Shown piece by piece: positions 1-35,225 of a stretch of DNA of 64,000 bases. The stretch lies in the NCBI RefSeq assembly GCF_055900595.2, contig NZ_CM148325.1; one strand, written 5' to 3'. A model generated the notes under the pieces. It had not been told where the DNA came from, searched no databases, and was given only the letters and a program-made list of their open reading frames with translations. Position numbers and translations under genes: made by a program. Position 1 is the stretch's first letter. Every line of letters begins with the position of its first letter.

Positions 1-80
1 ATTTGTTTCCCCATCTACACGTTTATCGTCATATTTTTGTATAGCTATTCTCAGCATTCGTGGGTAGATTATTTTTTTTC

Positions 81-200
81 CAACCGCAGCGCATCCACAT
101 ACCGCCCCTCGCTGTTCTGCTGCCACAACCAGCCCAGCCCCTGCTGCGCCTGCGTTAACATTTTTGCTAGCCAGCACGGTCACGGCAGGCAATTCTATGA
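81..200 (-). pseudogene. Degenerate non-coding duplicate of the 3' end of the tagF-like gene
   Basis: About 110 bp (84-190) aligns colinearly with 1183-1290, the 3' coding end of the 1163-1933 gene, with about 13 mismatches counted by eye; similarity decays beyond. No intact minus-strand ORF covers it. Confidence 0.5.
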
Positions 201-206
201 CAGGTA

Positions 207-680
207 CTACTCATCCGTACAACCCAGCCCCCGGCGCTGAACCACTTCACTGGCAAACGTAGCTCCGGTTTTTTTCATTATTCCTTTTTGTATTTTTTGC
301 AGCGCGGGAAATGAGATTCTCCTGCATGAATCCTCTTCCCATATATCACCAGTTACAGGGCTAACTGAAAATAGTCCCCACACATCTGTCGCTCCGGCGG
401 AAGGAGAATCATAACCTACCCCAAAACTAAAATACCCAGGATGATACAGGTTACCTTTTTTATCTTTCAGAGAACCGTCAAGAAAAAACCCAGACAATTC
501 CACATTATATTTTTCATTTTTTAGTGAAAAAACCAATAATGCCTGCGCCTGTATTTCAGTAAGACCTGACTGGTTAACAGTCGTTAGATCAAACCGCGGC
601 ACATTCCTGATAAGAATTTCAGCACAACAATTCACGGACACGACCATGAAAAGCAATACTGATATTAATTTACAGGACAT
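207..680 (-). CDS. Putative T6SS immunity protein (N-terminal signal peptide or membrane anchor), cognate to the upstream effector candidate
   Basis: 157-aa ORF whose start overlaps the stop of the 665-1135 ORF by 16 nt. N-terminal hydrophobic stretch LISVLLFMVVSVNCCA. AT-rich relative to the flanking T6SS core. No recognisable catalytic motif. Confidence 0.45.
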   Translation of the reverse strand: MSCKLISVLLFMVVSVNCCAEILIRNVPRFDLTTVNQSGLTEIQAQALLVFSLKNEKYNVELSGFFLDGSLKDKKGNLYHPGYFSFGVGYDSPSAGATDVWGLFSVSPVTGDIWEEDSCRRISFPALQKIQKGIMKKTGATFASEVVQRRGLGCTDE

Positions 681-1135
681 GTTATTCTCCGCTTAACCAT
701 ATTAATCACCCCCACTAACTCACTAGCATAACCGGTATGGCCGCCATTACTGTTTTTACCTGAATTAAAACCAGAATCAATCAATGCCTGCGCAAATTGC
801 TCCGGAGATTTTTTATTTCTGACCGCATTACCAAATCGGATTGCAAAGGACTTTCCGCTAGTTGAAAAAGAGGTATAAGTGGCAACCCACACTTGATTAC
901 TCCCCAGCGGGTGAACCTGTCCTGACTGTAAAGGTGCCGGACCATGCATGGAAAAGTAGTTATTGTATTCTGTCGCGATTCTACCCTGCCCGTAAAAGGA
1001 CTCCTTTGCAGCAAGCCCCAGGATATTTTCCACAGGCACATCAAGTTGCTTAGCGATTAATTCACATTCTTTCAGATATTGCTGTACAAACCTGACTGCA
1101 CCAGTGTTATTACAGGCTTTATCATAAGACCCCAT
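665..1135 (-). CDS. Putative T6SS peptidoglycan hydrolase effector with FlgJ-like N-acetylglucosaminidase (GH73-like) domain
   Basis: 156-aa ORF with no signal peptide. LGLAAKESFYGQG resembles the AQAALESGWG motif of the FlgJ glucosaminidase domain, and YTSF...FAQALIDSGF resembles the downstream conserved block. Sits directly after tagF-like at the 3' end of the T6SS operon. Confidence 0.5.
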   Translation of the reverse strand: MGSYDKACNNTGAVRFVQQYLKECELIAKQLDVPVENILGLAAKESFYGQGRIATEYNNYFSMHGPAPLQSGQVHPLGSNQVWVATYTSFSTSGKSFAIRFGNAVRNKKSPEQFAQALIDSGFNSGKNSNGGHTGYASELVGVINMVKRRITCPVN

Positions 1136-1162
1136 GATTCACTACTCCTTGTCTGATTATTT

Positions 1163-1933
1163 TTAATGCGGCCGGATATCCAGCCGCAACGCATCCACAT
1201 ACCGCCCCTCGCTGTTCTGCTGCCAGAACCAGCCCTGCCCCTGCTGCGCCTGCGTCAGCATTTTGTCCGGCCAGCCCGGCCACGGCAGGTGGCGCACACC
1301 GGGCAGTTCCACTACCGGCACGTCCGGCAGGCCGGTGAGTTCCCGGCTACGCTGCGGTACACGTCGTAAGCCGCGTAGCCACTGCGCCCAGCGCGGCCCC
1401 GGTCGCCACATCGCCCAGAGCTGGTCTGTCTGCTCCGCCAGTCGACCGCAGCGTTCTGTCTGTGGTGAGACATGAGCTGCCGTCAACTGCGCCAGCCAGT
1501 ACAGCCAGCCCTGTGTGTCATCCAGGCTCTCTTCCAGCCATTCCCGCCCGACACGCTGGTAAATCACCAGTGGCCACGGCCTGCCCGTACTGTCACGCGA
1601 GGCGGTCAGCACCCCGGTCAGCCACTCATCGCGCCCGCCAATGGGGAGAAATCCCGGCGACAGCACAAAACTCCACGGCAATGGGTGGTGCTCCGGTAGT
1701 GCCGTTTTCTCACGTGGTGACAGGTGCATCCAGCCGTCATTTGTTCCGGCCTTCTCGGCATCCGCGCCGTCCGGCACCACGATATGCCGCCCCTGTCCCA
1801 GCCACGTCTGCTGGTTCAGCCACGCCTGCCACACCTGCCCTTCGTTCGCGCTCACCCGCCAGCGCACGTAGTCCCGCTGGTCCGGCAGTCTGCCGAACAT
1901 CGCCGGAGCCGATACCTCTGCCCGGCGCATCAC
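1163..1933 (-). CDS. tagF: T6SS-associated protein, TagF-like (ImpM/DUF2094 type; position equivalent to SciT of Salmonella SPI-6)
   Basis: 256-aa ORF; start overlaps the tssM stop (translational coupling). Call rests on gene order after tssM and on size; family assignment is from memory, not motif-verified. Confidence 0.5.
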   Translation of the reverse strand: MMRRAEVSAPAMFGRLPDQRDYVRWRVSANEGQVWQAWLNQQTWLGQGRHIVVPDGADAEKAGTNDGWMHLSPREKTALPEHHPLPWSFVLSPGFLPIGGRDEWLTGVLTASRDSTGRPWPLVIYQRVGREWLEESLDDTQGWLYWLAQLTAAHVSPQTERCGRLAEQTDQLWAMWRPGPRWAQWLRGLRRVPQRSRELTGLPDVPVVELPGVRHLPWPGWPDKMLTQAQQGQGWFWQQNSEGRYVDALRLDIRPH

Positions 1934-4900
1934 AGCGCTCGCTCCGGGCAGGCGAAGCGTTGCAATAGCCCGCGGTTCACCGGGTCAAAATCCCGTCCGG
2001 CGGTGATTTCCAGCACCACCCGCCGCCCGTCAAAACTGTACTCCACCTGCTGTGTTCCCCGTACCACCGTCTCCTGCGCGTTACCCGCATCCAGCAGGTG
2101 AAACAGCGCCCATGGCCCGTTAGTCAGCAACGTCGAGGTGTCCTGGCGGATGCGCGGGCTGGCGGTGATTTCCGCCATTGAGCCGTTGCGCGGCCCCGGC
2201 CAGTTCACTTTCAGCGGCCTGACCGGGCCGTGAGCGTAGCGAAGCACCTGGCCGTCAATGTCAATCACCAGTTCGGTGATGGCAGGGTCCATATCCACCA
2301 CCCGCACCTGCATCGCCCAGGAAAACTTTTTCCCGCCTTCCCCATTAAAAAAAACGCTGCGGATCTGTTTCGCCTCCTGAAACGGTGTCAGGTCCGGCCC
2401 AAGCAACGTCATGTTGCCTTCGGTCGGTTTGTAGCGCCACGGGTTGCTGGCGGTGTCCGCCAGTGGGGCCAGTTGCTTCGTCCAGAACGCATCCAGCACG
2501 CCGCCGCTGGCAAAGATATGGTTAAAATCGTCCGCGCTGACTTCCTGCGGGCTGTCGGTGAAGGGGTAGCGCCCGTCGATGGCGTCGCGGCACTCATCAC
2601 CGATCACCGCTTCCATCTGCGCGTTCAGCACTTCACCGGTGCCGGCGTTGATTTTTCGCGTTCCCTGCTGCGTGAGATCCAGCAGAATATTTTTCAGTGG
2701 CGCGGGCAGTTTTGCCGCCTCCAATTGCAGTTTATCCGCCGCAGAAATGCGGCCAGGTAATGTGCTCGCTGCCAGTGCACTATCAGCGATGGTGAGCTGG
2801 GTGTAATACTCATTGAGCATCGTCAGCAGCGAATTTAACTGCGGCGCGCCGCCGCCCTGCCCGCTGTCTGTCCGCCCGGAAACCACTTCCCGCAAGGCGG
2901 CGAAACGGTCATCCACCAGTGATTTCTCTAGCCGCTCTTCCGGGTGGATGTCCTGCAATAGCTTTGCCGTCTGCACTGCTTTTCCCACATTGCCGGAGAG
3001 CCGGTCCTGCGTGCGCTGGGCCATCTGCTTTTGTCTGGCCTGCGCATCCAGCGGCGGCACCAGCGTGGTCTGCTCCACCACCGCTTTACTCAGGCGCATC
3101 AGCGGGGAATCCGGCGAGGCCAGGGTACGCAGCACCTGAAGGTCATACGCCAGCCCGGGACTGCCGTCTTCCCCGGCACTGTTGATGCTGTGAATACTGG
3201 CCAGAAAATCCTGCCAGCGGCGGGCATATTCAGCCAGGTACAGGCGGCGTACCTCACGGGTAACCGGGAGTTCCTGCCCCGGCAACTGGCTCATCACAAT
3301 ATCCGTCGTTTTTTTTTGCGTGTTTTCCCGGCCCATCACCCAGGCGTCGTCCGCTGATGCGGCTGCGACAAACTCCGACAGCCGTTTGTCGAACAGTTCC
3401 CGGTAGCCTTCGCGAGTGAAGATGCCGGGCACGCCCCGATCCAGCGGCGCGCCATCCGTGCGGACAAAAACCGTTCCCGCATCCGCGCCCACAGCGCGAA
3501 CCAGCGAAAACTCCTGCGGTGCTTCGCTCTCCATGGAAGCCAGGGCTCGAGTGTAGATACGCTCGGTGCTGGTATGGCCGTCAAGGAAAGCTCGCGCCTG
3601 GCGGATCAGCCCCTCATCTTTTTCCCAGGGCAAATGCACCACGCGGCTGCCGTCAAACAGGGCATCGATATGCTCCAGCACGGCGGCGCGACCGCCGAAC
3701 TCCGCCACGCTGTCGCGGTTGCCCAGGTCGTTCAGCACCCAGGCGTGGATCTCCGCCGCGTTGTATTTATCCTCGTGGTCCTTATCGAGGTTCAGCAACA
3801 GATAAACATGCAGGGCGTCATAGGCGGCTTTGCTGTCCTGACGCGCAATCGCATCCGAAAGCACGTATTCCATGCGTTTCACCAGCGGTGGCAGCAGTAA
3901 CTGGTCCAGCAGACGGTCATACAGGGATGCGACGCTCTCCATCACCGGCGGAACGCTGTAAAGACCATAACACCAGGCCAGCGGCGGCGAGTCCGGGTCC
4001 AGTCCCGGCCATGCAGAGAGCGCCCGTGCCTGGTTCAGCAGGGCCGGAACAGGCTGCATAGCAGGTTTTCCGGTATAGGCTTTGACATCACCATCCAGTT
4101 GGGTCGTCCGGCTGGCGATTTCATTCAGATAACCGCTGTTCCCCTGCTGGCTACCCTGCATGCCCTGCCACAACCAGAAAGCCAGCGCCAGTACCAGCAG
4201 ATGCCCGCCAGTACGCAGCAGGCGATAACGCCAGGCCCATTGAAGATTCGGCTCCACCAGGTGCGCTTCGCGGAAGATAAACTGCGTCAGTAGATCGTGC
4301 AGGAAATAGCTGCGGTTGCCGTCCGGCAGGGTATGGGATGGGGAATCAGCCTTCCCTTTGATCGCCCGGACAAAACGCTGCCAGATGCCCGACTGGTCAG
4401 CCACGGCGTCTGCCTGCGCCTGCGCGGCGCTGGTAAAAAATACGCCGCGCAGGGTGTTGTTAAGCTGGGTGGCGTCAAATTTTGAGTCGAGGAAAATCTG
4501 CTCAATGGCTTCCAGCAGCGGCGCACCCAGCGCGGCAAATTCACGCGGGAAGCGGTAGAGCCGCTGGCGGCTTTGAAGGTCGTACTCTTCCTGCAACCGG
4601 GTATCCAGCCCCTGATCCAGCCGCAGCGTCAGGTTTGCCAGTTCCCGGCCACAGAGCGCATGCAGCGACTGCGGATCGCTGGCGTGACGCCTGCGGCTGT
4701 AAGGCAGGGTGAAGCCCCAAACCTGGGCGCGCAGGTGGCTGGTCAGCCCGTGGAAATACTCCGTAAAGCCCGGCAGCAGATCCATTTTGGTGACGACCAG
4801 ATAGACCGGAAAACGAATACCCAGCGTCTCCCGCAGTTCCGCCAGCCGCGCACGCAGGGCCGCACAGGCAGCCAGTCGTTCCGCCGGGGACTGCGCGGTC

Positions 4901-5796
4901 AGATCCGCCACGTTCAGCGTCAGGATCACACCGTTGAGCGGTGCGCCAGGGCGGTGCTTACGCAGCAGCCCAAGAAACCCCTGCCACTCCCCGGCGTTAC
5001 GCTGAGTCGCGCTGATTTCGCCGCCGTCATCGTGGCGGGCATAGCGCCCGGCGGTATCGATGAGTACAGCCTCGTTGGTGAACCACCAGTCACAGTGCAG
5101 CGTGCCGCCGCCCGGCACGGTGAGGATATGCGCGGTCTGCTCCATCTGCTCCGCCAGCGGAAACTGTAGCCCGGTGTTAAGTAGCGCGGTGGTTTTGCCA
5201 TCGCCGGGGCTGCCGATAACCATAAACCACGGCAGTTCGTACAGGAAGCGCTTCCCTTCCAGGACCTTACGCCAGCCGGGCAGGTCCACCCGCAGTTGTT
5301 TCAGTTGCCGGATGGCACGGGTGACAATATGGCTGACCGTGCGCAGGTCGGCTTTAATTTCCCCGGCCACCGGCACGTCTTCCCCGCGCGGATGCAGGAA
5401 ACGGCGCAGCAGTTGTTCATCCAGGCGCAGCGCCCGCCACAGTCGGTACAGGCCATAAAGCGCATAAGTCAGCAGGATCAGGCCGATAAGCGTCAGACGC
5501 AGCCACAGCGGCGCAAACGGGCGAACGTCACCGAAGGCCAGCAGGGGTGAAACAAAACCGATGACCAGGCACAGAACCGTTACGCCAATGATGCTCATCG
5601 ACCAGTTCACCAGCCACAGGGCGAGGAACATCAGTAACAGAACGATGGTGACTACCCGGCTCCCCACAGATGCCAGCGGATGCAGGGTATCAAACGCCAC
5701 CAGCGGCCCGATAAACCAGACCAGCAACGCCAGCATCACCACGCCGACAACGGCCAGCGCGCGGCGGGAAAACAGCATACTGAGAAATTTTTGCAT
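1930..5796 (-). CDS. tssM: T6SS membrane complex protein TssM (IcmF family)
   Basis: 1288-aa ORF with N-terminal transmembrane helices, Walker A motif GSPGDGKTT, and a large C-terminal periplasmic region. Coupled to the upstream and downstream genes. Confidence 0.9.
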   Translation of the reverse strand: MQKFLSMLFSRRALAVVGVVMLALLVWFIGPLVAFDTLHPLASVGSRVVTIVLLLMFLALWLVNWSMSIIGVTVLCLVIGFVSPLLAFGDVRPFAPLWLRLTLIGLILLTYALYGLYRLWRALRLDEQLLRRFLHPRGEDVPVAGEIKADLRTVSHIVTRAIRQLKQLRVDLPGWRKVLEGKRFLYELPWFMVIGSPGDGKTTALLNTGLQFPLAEQMEQTAHILTVPGGGTLHCDWWFTNEAVLIDTAGRYARHDDGGEISATQRNAGEWQGFLGLLRKHRPGAPLNGVILTLNVADLTAQSPAERLAACAALRARLAELRETLGIRFPVYLVVTKMDLLPGFTEYFHGLTSHLRAQVWGFTLPYSRRRHASDPQSLHALCGRELANLTLRLDQGLDTRLQEEYDLQSRQRLYRFPREFAALGAPLLEAIEQIFLDSKFDATQLNNTLRGVFFTSAAQAQADAVADQSGIWQRFVRAIKGKADSPSHTLPDGNRSYFLHDLLTQFIFREAHLVEPNLQWAWRYRLLRTGGHLLVLALAFWLWQGMQGSQQGNSGYLNEIASRTTQLDGDVKAYTGKPAMQPVPALLNQARALSAWPGLDPDSPPLAWCYGLYSVPPVMESVASLYDRLLDQLLLPPLVKRMEYVLSDAIARQDSKAAYDALHVYLLLNLDKDHEDKYNAAEIHAWVLNDLGNRDSVAEFGGRAAVLEHIDALFDGSRVVHLPWEKDEGLIRQARAFLDGHTSTERIYTRALASMESEAPQEFSLVRAVGADAGTVFVRTDGAPLDRGVPGIFTREGYRELFDKRLSEFVAAASADDAWVMGRENTQKKTTDIVMSQLPGQELPVTREVRRLYLAEYARRWQDFLASIHSINSAGEDGSPGLAYDLQVLRTLASPDSPLMRLSKAVVEQTTLVPPLDAQARQKQMAQRTQDRLSGNVGKAVQTAKLLQDIHPEERLEKSLVDDRFAALREVVSGRTDSGQGGGAPQLNSLLTMLNEYYTQLTIADSALAASTLPGRISAADKLQLEAAKLPAPLKNILLDLTQQGTRKINAGTGEVLNAQMEAVIGDECRDAIDGRYPFTDSPQEVSADDFNHIFASGGVLDAFWTKQLAPLADTASNPWRYKPTEGNMTLLGPDLTPFQEAKQIRSVFFNGEGGKKFSWAMQVRVVDMDPAITELVIDIDGQVLRYAHGPVRPLKVNWPGPRNGSMAEITASPRIRQDTSTLLTNGPWALFHLLDAGNAQETVVRGTQQVEYSFDGRRVVLEITAGRDFDPVNRGLLQRFACPERAL

Positions 5797-18609: not shown

Positions 18610-20493
18610 ATGGATCCACGGCTACTGGAATACTACAACCGCGAACTGAGCTATCTGCGGGAAACGGGAGCCGAATTTGCCGCCCGTCATCCTAAAGTCG
18701 CCGCCAGACTGGGTATGCAGGGAACGGATATTGCCGATCCGTATGTGGAGCGTATGGTCGAAGCCTTTAGCTTCCTGACCGCCCGCACGCAGCTAAAAAT
18801 TGACGCTGAATTCCCCCGTTTCACCCAGCGCCTGCTGGAAGTAGTCAGCCCCAATTACGTCACCCCCACGCCCTCAATGAGCGTGGCGCAGCTCCATCCC
18901 GACCCGGAAGAAGGCGATCTGGCGAAGGGATTTACCGTCCCGCGCGACACGGCCTTTTTTTCCGCCATTCCGGAAGGCGAAAGTACCGCCTGTCAGTTTC
19001 GCAGCAGCCAGGATGTAACGCTGTGGCCGCTCGCCATCGAAGAGGTGCGACTGACCGCCGCACCGCCGGATATGCCTGCCCTGCACCGCTCTCTGCCAGC
19101 CAACATTCACGTCGCTGGTGCGCTGCGTATTACCCTGCGCACCTTTGGTGAACTGACATTCAGTCAGCTTGCAGGGCTGGACAGGCTTCCGTTTTATCTC
19201 TGTGGCGAGGAGCGCACGGCCTCACACCTGTTCGAACTGCTACATACCAGCGCCATCGCGACCCTGGCTGGCATTCCGGGGCATTTTGACGGTGCGCTGG
19301 ATGTGAATCTGCAACATCCCGTTATGTACGAAGGCCTGGAGCTGGATCAGGGGCTGCTGCCGCTGGCGTGGAACGTGTTTCACGGTCATAACCTGCTGCA
19401 TGAATATTTTGCCTGTCCAGAACGCTTTTATTTTTTCACCCCGACAGGCCTGTCTGCCGGGTTACAGAAAATTGACGGTGGCGTGGCGGAGATTGTTATC
19501 CTGCTGAACCGCCTGCCGCCGGACTGGCTGATCCACCAGACAAACGCGGCACAGTTCAGCCTGTTCTGTACCCCGATTATCAACCTGTTTCCCCGCGTCA
19601 CCGCACGGATCGATGTCACGCACAGCACGACGGAACAGCATCTGGTGGTAGACAGAACCCATCCACTGGATTATGAGGTGTTCTCGGTCCAGGAAGTGGA
19701 AGGGCTGGAAACCGACACCACACGGAAGATGGCCTTTCGCCCGCTCTACCACACCCGCAATAATGATGAAGGCAATCACGGACGTTATTTTTCCCTGCGC
19801 CGGGAGCCCCGCCGCTTATCAGAAAACGCCCGCCGTTACGGCACCCGTACCCCCTATACGGGCTCGGAAGTGTTCCTGTCGCTGGTTGACCAATATGAAG
19901 CGCCGTACCCAGAAAATCTGCGCCACATCACCATCACGGCCATGGTCACTAACCGCGATCTGCCCTGTCTTATTGCACGTAATGGCCGGGACGATCTAAC
20001 CGTGGATGCGGCAATCCCAGTGGCGGGCGTAGGGCTTATCCGCCCGCCGCGCTCGCCGCAGCCCCCGCTGGCTGAACGTGAGATGGCCTGGCGTTTGATC
20101 CGCCAGTTATCCTTTAATTATCTGCCGCTGGCCGATCTGGATCACCGTACCGGCGGCCAGGCGCTGCGCGATCTGCTTAACCTGTTTATTCCGGCGCATG
20201 ACAGCCCACAGTCGCGCCAGGTACGCAGTCTGATTGGCTGCAACACCACCCCGGTCACCCGCCGTCTGCCCGGTACCGGGCTGCTGGTCTATGGACGCGG
20301 CGTCAGTTGTGAACTGACGGTGGATGAGGAAGGGTTCTCCGGTATCAGTCCGTATCTGTTCGGCCTGGTGCTGGAGCACTATATCGCCCGTCATGTTTCC
20401 ATTAATACCTTCTCGCAGATGACGCTGCACAGCATGCAGCGCGGCAAAATTATGACCTGGCCTGTCAGGGCGGGACAGCGGGGAAGCGTATGA
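18610..20493 (+). CDS. tssF: T6SS baseplate protein TssF
   Basis: 627-aa ORF between tssE and tssG, overlapping the tssG start; size and position of TssF. Confidence 0.85.
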   Translation: MDPRLLEYYNRELSYLRETGAEFAARHPKVAARLGMQGTDIADPYVERMVEAFSFLTARTQLKIDAEFPRFTQRLLEVVSPNYVTPTPSMSVAQLHPDPEEGDLAKGFTVPRDTAFFSAIPEGESTACQFRSSQDVTLWPLAIEEVRLTAAPPDMPALHRSLPANIHVAGALRITLRTFGELTFSQLAGLDRLPFYLCGEERTASHLFELLHTSAIATLAGIPGHFDGALDVNLQHPVMYEGLELDQGLLPLAWNVFHGHNLLHEYFACPERFYFFTPTGLSAGLQKIDGGVAEIVILLNRLPPDWLIHQTNAAQFSLFCTPIINLFPRVTARIDVTHSTTEQHLVVDRTHPLDYEVFSVQEVEGLETDTTRKMAFRPLYHTRNNDEGNHGRYFSLRREPRRLSENARRYGTRTPYTGSEVFLSLVDQYEAPYPENLRHITITAMVTNRDLPCLIARNGRDDLTVDAAIPVAGVGLIRPPRSPQPPLAEREMAWRLIRQLSFNYLPLADLDHRTGGQALRDLLNLFIPAHDSPQSRQVRSLIGCNTTPVTRRLPGTGLLVYGRGVSCELTVDEEGFSGISPYLFGLVLEHYIARHVSINTFSQMTLHSMQRGKIMTWPVRAGQRGSV

Positions 20494-22674: not shown

Positions 22675-22751
22675 TGGCGGAACGGACGGGACTCGAACCC
22701 GCGACCCCCTGCGTGACAGGCAGGTATTCTAACCGACTGAACTACCGCTCC
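22675..22751 (-). tRNA. aspV: tRNA-Asp (GUC)
   Basis: 77-nt sequence; reverse complement matches E. coli tRNA-Asp as recalled (GGAGCGGTAGTTCAGTCGGTTAGAATACCTGCCTGTCACGCAGGGGGTCGCGGGTTCGAGTCCCGTCCGTTCCGCCA). Confidence 0.97.
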
Positions 22752-31610: not shown

Positions 31611-31687
31611 TGGCGGAACGGACGGGACTCGAACCCGCGACCCCCTGCGTGACAGGCAGGTATTCTAACCGACTGAACTACCGCTCC
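31611..31687 (-). tRNA. aspU: tRNA-Asp (GUC), distal gene of rrnH operon
   Basis: 77 nt, identical to the 22675-22751 copy. Confidence 0.97.
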
Positions 31688-31739
31688 ACCGAATTCTTTT
31701 ACAACCACCGGTTTTATGACCGGCTTACTGCTTAATTTG

Positions 31740-31859
31740 ATGCCTGGCAGTTCCCTACTCTCGCATGGGGAGACCCCACACTACCATCGGCGCTACGGCG
31801 TTTCACTTCTGAGTTCGGCATGGGGTCAGGTGGGACCACCGCGCTAAGGCCGCCAGGCA
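31740..31859 (-). rRNA. rrfH: 5S ribosomal RNA
   Basis: 120 nt; reverse complement matches E. coli 5S rRNA (TGCCTGGCGGC...GGAACTGCCAGGCAT) apart from about one position relative to my recollection of rrfB. Confidence 0.95.
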
Positions 31860-31952
31860 AATTCTGTTTCATCAGACCGCTTCTGCGTTCTGATTTAATC
31901 TGTATCAGGCTGAAAATCTTCTCTCAATCCGCCAAAACATCTTCGGCGTTGT

Positions 31953-34857
<2,905 letters not shown>

Positions 34858-35030
34858 TCACAACCCGAAGATGTTTCACTTCTGATTGCGAAAATTTGAG
34901 AGACTCACGAACAACTTTCGTTGTTCAGTGTTTCAATTTTCAGCTTGATCCAGATTTTTAAAGAGCAAAACTTCGCAGTGAACCTTTGCAGGTACACTCT
35001 GAAGTATTTTTTATTTAATCACTACAGAGA

Positions 35031-35106
35031 TGGTGGAGCTATGCGGGATCGAACCGCAGACCTCCTGCGTGCAAAGCAGGCGCTCTCCCAGCTGAGCTAT
35101 AGCCCC
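35031..35106 (-). tRNA. alaV: tRNA-Ala (UGC), spacer tRNA
   Basis: 76 nt; reverse complement GGGGCTATAGCTCAGCTGGGAGAGCGCCTGCTTTGCACGCAGGAGGTCTGCGGTTCGATCCCGCATAGCTCCACCA. Confidence 0.97.
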
Positions 35107-35148
35107 ATAACATGTAGTTAAAACCTCTTCAAATTTGCGGTGCAAATT

Positions 35149-35225
<77 letters not shown>

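Follow-up and report, generated by a model that had tools for sequence, protein, structure and literature searches.

Related systems

The variable region VR2 of Salmonella pathogenicity island 6 (SPI-6) lies downstream of tssM in a type VI secretion system (T6SS) cluster and holds Tge2/Tgi2P, Tlde1/Tldi1 and other candidate pairs (PMC10469887, PMC13224477, PMC12288458). S. Tennessee carries two tge2/tgi2P copies, and the candidate pairs of VR2 have sizes similar to those reported below (approximately 243 amino acids [aa]; approximately 279 aa plus approximately 86 aa) (PMC10469887, PMC13224477). The authors who described the region took the missing mobile elements to argue against a recombination hot-spot and reported no evidence of how such regions vary (PMC10469887). 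Here, we analyse the corresponding slot at the left end of a 64,000-nucleotide (nt) stretch of DNA (assembly GCF_055900595.2, contig NZ_CM148325.1), the whole of which is called the window. In this slot, a Tge2/Tgi2 effector-immunity cassette is found between the 3' end of the T6SS accessory gene tagF and a detached second copy of that same end. The copy inside tagF is designated H1 and the detached copy, or remnant, H2; the loci used for comparison carry L numbers. Such tagF-end repeats probably provide the homology through which effector-immunity cassettes are gained, lost and swapped.

The slot matches the known VR2 variable region and is not a newly discovered site, and the gene pair that it holds is also known. 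It resembles VR2 in its position after tssM/tagF and before vgrG, in cluster layout, in its resident Tge2/Tgi2P pair and in content that varies among strains. The VR2 papers treat gene content only, with tagF and repeats unmentioned (PMC10469887, PMC13224477). Relative to that description, the tagF-end repeats supply the missing footprint, and the cassette is rare in E. coli (12 of 114 genomes). A literature search, with subscription journals outside its reach, found no description of tagF repeats as a recombination footprint; their role as the physical trace of module turnover, and as its likely substrate, appears to be undescribed.

Rhs and contact-dependent inhibition (CDI) systems, as summarized in PMC5361080 and PMC12288458, exchange modules where an upstream gene has a conserved end, pieces of which remain as repeats, with arrays accumulating downstream (Jackson 2009, Koskiniemi 2014). 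Recombination at such repeats can add, delete or activate modules. The likeness to this C-terminal displacement is that a conserved upstream 3' end is repeated before successive modules (H1, H2 and a third copy, H3, in locus L001 of E. coli R32_14_1F), with further remnants between or after modules in L011, L014, L015, L017, L020 and L021. In the Rhs/CDI case, according to the same summaries, the repeat is the toxin's own core and the displaced part encodes an in-frame toxin domain; here, in contrast, the repeat is the end of the accessory protein TagF, the tails are 3-7 codons long and the effector is a separate gene.

The T6SS of Vibrio cholerae gains modules horizontally without an integrase, for which homologous recombination and rare homology-facilitated illegitimate recombination have been proposed (Kirchberger 2017, PMC5361080). 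The two cases share integrase-free modules in a T6SS cluster, and an analogy with integron arrays was also drawn by the authors of that study (PMC5361080). There, however, the resident effector is displaced by the newcomer while its immunity gene stays behind as an orphan (PMC5361080), whereas the cassette in the window displaces nothing: the pair is complete, only approximately 125 nt of tagF are duplicated and the insertion could be undone scarlessly. Only L020 shows an orphan-like state, the tge2 of a second cassette being frameshifted beside an intact tgi2. The locus is not an integron-type array, as no integrase or transposase is annotated beside the cassette (flanks of 3.8-6 kb downstream and approximately 4-6 kb upstream), the points at which the repeat switches ancestry vary and the remnant is unstructured.

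A direct repeat of the tagF 3' end

Positions 79-189 of the window (H2) are a direct repeat of positions 1179-1289 (H1), the 3' end of tagF. Each copy is 111 nt in length and the spacing is exactly 1100 nt. The copies are in register with no indel and agree at 99 of 111 positions, compared with 55 of 111 for the best 111-mer in 200 shuffles (BLAST E = 1.6e-37). The first-pass annotation of this DNA, made from the letters alone, had placed the repeat at 84-190 and 1183-1290 with approximately 13 mismatches; its coordinates were essentially right, and the pairwise alignment that it called for shows the similarity to be significant. The 12 mismatches are unevenly distributed: eight fall within 156-180, while only 4 of the 71 bases at 79-149 differ from H1. 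The same annotation described weaker similarity over a further 40 base pairs. On the same ungapped diagonal this is not seen, as past position 190/1290 only 1-4 bases match per 10 (that is, no similarity); a gapped alignment is suggestive only and is clearer in Salmonella-type loci, where the remnant continues for approximately 35 nt more, as far as the tgi2 stop codon. Because the Salmonella-type remnants reach this stop, the E. coli remnant may have lost or degraded such an extension.

The window is 99.9% identical to L001, in which the gene order is tssL-tssM-tagF-cassette-modules-vgrG-DcrB. The genes at its left end (tssM, tagF, a 156-aa gene, a 157-aa gene and the detached tagF piece at approximately 69-190) are all on the minus strand, as follows.

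1930-5796, minus strand: tssM, membrane-complex gene, 1288 aa, upstream of tagF (open reading frame [ORF] list and RefSeq annotation of L001)
1163-1933, minus strand: tagF, intact, 256 aa, C-terminus ...GWFWQQNSEGRYVDALRLDIRPH followed by the stop (NCBIfam TIGR03373 TagF, E 1.4e-10)
1179-1289, minus strand: repeat copy H1, within the tagF coding sequence, C-terminal motif; the most conserved block of the gene
1136-1178, minus strand: cassette-linked tail, consisting of the final tagF codons (DIRPH and stop) and a 27-nt spacer with the AAGGAG ribosome-binding site for tge2
665-1135, minus strand: tge2, Tge2-family peptidoglycan glycoside hydrolase effector, 156 aa (Pfam Glucosaminidase, PDB 4KT3_A)
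207-680, minus strand: tgi2, Tgi2-family immunity protein, 157 aa, with a hydrophobic N-terminal leader (Pfam T6SS_Tgi2PP, 4KT3_B)
150-190, minus strand: remnant H2, cassette-linked part, degenerate tagF with an in-frame TGA; moves together with the cassette
79-149, minus strand: remnant H2, background part, near-native tagF 3' core, where crossovers are placed
69-78, minus strand: native tagF tail (...EKK, stop codon 69-71), detached from the gene; identical to the tagF end in empty-site alleles L004 and L005
1-68, minus strand: start of the spacer toward the next module, which itself lies past the left edge of the window (L001 5142-6058)

The tssM stop overlaps the tagF start, and tgi2 overlaps the tge2 stop by 16 nt; the ribosome-binding site of tge2 was read directly from the sequence. 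RefSeq names the tagF product a 'TagF domain-containing protein', and it is 76% identical to the Salmonella TagF of L017.

Presence and absence of the cassette in E. coli

The tagF end was detected in 114 of 5426 complete E. coli genomes, at 126 places in total. Exactly 12 genomes have two copies and exactly 12 carry the Tge2 cassette, and these are the same 12. The cassette is of type A in eight of them (at least 98.7% identical) and of type B in four (approximately 75% identical in DNA); between the two types, protein identity is 63% for Tge2 and 57% for Tgi2. Eight filled and two empty E. coli loci (L004 and L005) were inspected, plus about eight loci from other taxa. At the empty sites, tagF continues directly into the tail of the remnant (...EKK and stop) and its flank, such that these alleles are what results when the right part of H1 is fused with H2's left part and tail. 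The match spans of the remaining one-copy genomes fit the same empty architecture. The empty-site alleles are what excision of the cassette would predict, yet an ancestral empty site would look equally like this.

A separate Tae4/Tai4 cassette can occupy the space between tssM and tagF, and each of the four possible Tae4/Tge2 states is represented (L005 neither, L004 Tae4 only, L001 Tge2 only and L006 both). In related strains the Tae4/Tai4 cassette sits exactly at the tssM/tagF junction (window 1920-1957; L004 4766-4856 and 6380-6460; L006 6423-7591). Its flanks form a diverged duplication of the junction (38 nt at 76% and 28 nt at 82%), and its insertion leaves the tssM stop and the tagF start intact. 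The cluster has here a second slot bearing a scar of this type, and it is not filled in the window. At another point of the L006 cluster (strain Rb-50; L006 154-2504), two ISEc1-family transposase genes, one with an internal stop, cut the vgrG end beside yafV.

A young cassette and a mosaic remnant

Type A cassettes diverge from that of the window by 0.4-1.4%, compared with 2.3-10.3% for the adjacent tagF body and 4.6-6.2% for the tssM 3' end. The cassette is thus younger than its flanks, being up to nine times less diverged than the tagF body (Fisher p 6e-4 to 9e-17). As the same cassette is found in at least four tagF backgrounds, this low divergence indicates that it has moved by recombination.

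The remnant is itself a mosaic. Its 41 cassette-side nucleotides (150-190) do not vary among seven filled E. coli loci (100% identity), and the remaining locus of the eight has a single-base change (97.6%). This holds for type A and type B cargo, and identity to any functional tagF is only 80%. The remainder (79-149), with the tail and flank, matches the empty-site allele of its own background, which is like L004 for the window and L006 and like L005 for L002 and L008. The switch point differs among loci, lying on the cassette side of alignment column 88 in L006 and on the background (tail) side in L001, L002 and L008. At the other end of the cassette, the DIRPH-stop tail and the spacer are 93-100% conserved in all filled loci, including those with type B cargo, and are not found in the empty-site alleles. 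H1 and cargo types have also been reshuffled (L010 joins the H1 of the window to type B cargo), and the tail after the remnant co-varies with the downstream module in L003, L010 and L011.

These observations also bear on whether the repeat is a passive fossil, that is, whether a single ancient tge2-tgi2 insertion, illegitimate or homology-facilitated illegitimate, duplicated approximately 125-160 nt and left a remnant without a later role, followed by vertical descent, occasional loss and large-segment recombination. E. coli and Salmonella-type loci share the position at which the remnant adjoins the tgi2 stop, pointing to one origin, and a fossil would fit the degeneracy of the cassette-side remnant with its in-frame stop as well as the large-segment mosaicism across tagF and tssM. 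We nevertheless consider this explanation unlikely: the background side of the remnant matches the local allele, the switch points differ inside 111 nt and the cassette is far less diverged than the tagF next to it. In several lineages, a remnant core of approximately 60-70 nt has kept 94-96% identity to resident tagF despite decay of the remainder, a pattern suggestive of continuing exchange or gene conversion.

The Tge2/Tgi2 cargo

The product of 665-1135 matches the Pfam family Glucosaminidase (PF01832, E 5.5e-9) and PDB chain 4KT3_A (E 2.2e-46 over residues 6-153). The product of 207-680 matches T6SS_Tgi2PP (PF21576, E 1.4e-13) and chain 4KT3_B (E 4.7e-36), to which it aligns through the last residue. 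We take PDB 4KT3 to be the Tge2PP-Tgi2PP complex of Pseudomonas protegens, and the Pfam family name and cited papers are consistent with this. On the strength of these matches, the genes between the two copies are the known Tge2/Tgi2 effector-immunity pair, with a predicted glucosaminidase-type fold in the effector; the first-pass annotation had correctly recognized such a pair between the tagF end and the remnant. Both proteins are clearly homologous to their P. protegens counterparts along almost the entire sequence. The two organisms have just this gene pair in common, and the comparison is silent on the genomic junction.

The last 37 Tgi2 residues are almost identical in types A and B (window 207-320; L003 4130-4240) despite 57% identity overall, so the conserved right arm of the cassette reaches approximately 110 nt into tgi2. 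Derivation of the Tgi2 C-terminus from tagF was considered and rejected, as the protein aligns with Tgi2PP to its last residue.

Carriage of the cassette on plasmids or phages was likewise rejected: the few matches included no genuine case and were mislabelled chromosomal pieces. A 4.9-Mb 'plasmid' record (NZ_CP134663.1) is really a chromosomal T6SS, and two unplaced Salmonella contigs of approximately 5 kb are also among the matches; L022 (OX345330.1) is an unplaced contig of 5.5 kb. L021 (OR845577.1) is a 2-kb low-coverage phage contig labelled 'UNVERIFIED_ORG' with a Salmonella-like tagF end-Tge2-Tgi2-remnant arrangement.

Nature of the remnant

The remnant lacks the N-terminal part of TagF and is annotated in RefSeq as a partial TagF pseudogene. 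It retains an ORF of 30 codons (69-161, minus strand, ...GRYVDALRLEKK and stop) in the tagF frame and with its own stop codon; an in-frame TGA, read from the sequence, lies immediately upstream of this ORF. The earlier description of the copy as non-coding agrees with the pseudogene annotation, the TGA and the missing N-terminal part, but passes over the ORF that has been kept.

A core of approximately 55 nt is common to all remnants and encodes GWFWQQNSEGRYVDALRL (tagF core sequence: TGGCAGCAGAACAGYGARGGNCGNTATGTGGATGC). Across genera, the GWFWQQNSEGRYVDALRL motif has 100% protein and 90% nucleotide identity and is the best-conserved block of tagF. Synonymous-site conservation of this anchor is unexceptional (0.66 versus 0.45-0.73 elsewhere): constraint on the protein accounts for the conserved nucleotides, with no need to postulate additional selection at the DNA level.

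The striking invariance of the 41-nt cassette-side part, together with the persistence of the 30-codon ORF in the window, could suggest that the repeat is kept as a functional element (a regulatory RNA, promoter, terminator or small gene serving the downstream module, or the target of a site-specific recombinase). We regard this as extremely improbable. No promoter-like or terminator-like site was found in window 1-206, an Rfam search of the remnant gave no match and its predicted fold is no better than that of shuffles (z = +0.9), on which grounds a regulatory or structured-RNA role was rejected. In L003 and the Salmonella-type remnants the ORF does not survive, being interrupted by an indel or stops; no recombinase gene lies close by, and the switch points vary, with no fixed site. 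Upstream of tge2, a simple consensus scan found no promoter-like site; the gene has its own ribosome-binding site.

Remnants in other genera and stacked modules

A TagF search of genome contigs gave only four loci, and Salmonella-type loci were reached via Tge2 homologues; the latter have the same gene order as L001. The repeat recurs across genera: the tagF core is found between or after modules in L011, L014, L015, L016, L017, L020 and L021. L011, from another Escherichia species, has the order tagF-Tge2-Tgi2-remnant (113 nt, 83%) and a 34-nt copy further on. The remnants of L017 and L020 (Salmonella) and L021 (Salmonella-like) are 94-96% identical to resident tagF over 62-72 nt. In L014 (Citrobacter amalonaticus), the slot holds a different pair (282 aa and 94 aa) with a decayed remnant (69% over 90 nt, E 8e-7).

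A tagF 3' remnant is also present outside the slot. In Enterobacter sp. ENT03 (L012 1388-1490; 75% over 108 nt), it is upstream of tssM, between tssL and a truncated homologue of a Salmonella effector-like gene of 233 aa ('MSKR...'), and from its position the L012 module seems to have moved to another slot along with its remnant. NCBIfam and Pfam searches with the 282-aa Citrobacter protein and the 233-aa 'MSKR...' protein gave no significant match.

Two loci are informative with respect to stacking. L015, a metagenome contig with the Salmonella-type layout, has two tandem Tge2/Tgi2 cassettes, each followed by a tagF remnant; the first remnant contains the tail and spacer of the second cassette, and the two Tge2 proteins are 71% identical. 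In L001, the third tagF copy (H3, 3869-3902, 34 nt) encodes SEGRYVDALRL and lies between a truncated vgrG and the next module; the arrangement has the appearance of an entire 'tagF end-module-vgrG start' unit having been duplicated or stacked at this point. The truncated N-terminal vgrG copy (L001 3998-4749) is located by the 34-nt remnant, between two paralogous effector-like/partner modules.

Such loci raise the question of whether a tandem duplication took in everything from approximately position -160 of tagF as far as the tgi2 stop, with subsequent decay or replacement of one copy, in which case the remnant would be a duplication junction and not an insertion scar. The tandem cassettes of L015 and L020, separated by a tagF end with tail and spacer, are in keeping with this, and the truncated vgrG and 34-nt tagF piece between paralogous modules in L001 resemble a duplication junction. 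The window, however, has one cassette and nothing cassette-like after the remnant, the two Tge2 proteins of L015 are too dissimilar for a recent duplication, and both the remnant after the last cassette and the empty sites with a native tail are left unexplained. Tandem duplication is therefore very unlikely, more so than a passive fossil.

Neighbouring features

The next module, which lies left of the window and is seen in L001, comprises a 244-aa candidate metallopeptidase effector and a small partner. The 244-aa protein gave weak Pfam hints only (Peptidase_M57 and M64); candidate effectors near its size have been reported in VR2 (PMC10469887).

A tRNA-Asp gene at window 22675-22751 borders the end of the T6SS island. 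A second tRNA-Asp, a tRNA-Ala and a tRNA-Ile are located at window 31611-35225, in a region that is free of ORFs (approximately 31.5-37 kb) and resembles a ribosomal RNA operon. ARAGORN also reported a 94-nt tRNA-His (window 20276-20369, plus strand) inside a 627-aa T6SS ORF (18610-20493), which is probably a false positive.

Proposed mechanism

Cassette turnover through the tagF-end repeats would proceed as follows. A 1.1-kb cassette would have entered the last approximately 125 nt of tagF, supplying a replacement tagF end on one side and leaving the resident end as a detached remnant on the other, such that the best-conserved stretch of tagF flanks it on both sides as direct copies. Gain would occur when a 'tagF-cassette-remnant' fragment recombines into any tagF cluster, crossing over in tagF on the left and in the remnant on the right, irrespective of the sequence downstream. 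Recombination between both copies would delete the cassette and restore an intact, in-frame tagF, while cargo could be swapped by exchange between the arms. The pathway would be ordinary homologous recombination of the RecA type, and the cassette, for which no promoter is predicted, would presumably be read through from the tssM-tagF transcript.

The first-pass annotation had proposed that the cassette was inserted or swapped by homologous recombination at the tagF 3' end. This idea is strengthened by the empty sites, the low divergence of the cassette, the mosaic remnant and the varying cargo; the comparison of the junction across E. coli and Salmonella genomes revealed varying content, as had been predicted. 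As to its further suggestion of an effector-exchange hotspot, the cargo does vary; the slot, however, matches the already known VR2, breakpoints also occur inside the tagF body and a hotspot in the quantitative sense is unproven.

Several points weigh against a special role for the repeat. Breakpoints are found elsewhere in the tagF body and in tssM, so recombination may have several homologies at its disposal, with no preference for the repeat among them. The slot in E. coli contains Tge2/Tgi2 (two types) or nothing, with no other cargo. Some remnants are badly decayed (76% for the second remnant of L015 and 69% for that of L014) and are probably no longer usable. Finally, the direction of events (gain versus loss) is not readable from the sequences, and no recombination event has been seen directly.

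With regard to the first junction, the remnant begins right after the tgi2 stop in E. coli and in Salmonella L017 and L020. Because the position is the same in both, the tgi2/tagF junction probably arose once, through an illegitimate or homology-facilitated event. In L017 and L020, the last approximately 30 nt of tgi2 are patchily similar to tagF around -190 (GGGCTG...GATGAA), just upstream of the remnant start; as this stretch of tgi2 is native Tgi2, the similarity may reflect either microhomology at the original junction or chance.

Significance

T6SS effector repertoires decide which strains coexist, and hence the route by which a repertoire changes matters. In SPI-6-type clusters, the variable regions that hold periplasm-acting effectors have been catalogued (PMC10469887). 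The repeated tagF ends offer a concrete, testable answer to how VR2 varies: modules bring with them homology to a highly conserved piece of a core-cluster gene, and ordinary recombination would then suffice to gain them, lose them scarlessly or swap them. Additional tagF core copies also provide a simple search key with which to delimit modules and find new effector-immunity pairs in SPI-6-type clusters.

More tentatively, the approximately 55-110-nt tagF 3' end might be a shared, integrase-free docking sequence for promoter-less modules across the Enterobacteriaceae, each module travelling with its own copy, which would make the post-tagF region resemble a cassette array. This broader idea is doubtful at present, though less so than any of the rival explanations considered above. 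If it is true, modules would be stackable, excisable without a scar and movable between genera and even between slots (as in L012), and the arrangement may persist because it allows faster turnover of the toxin arsenal.

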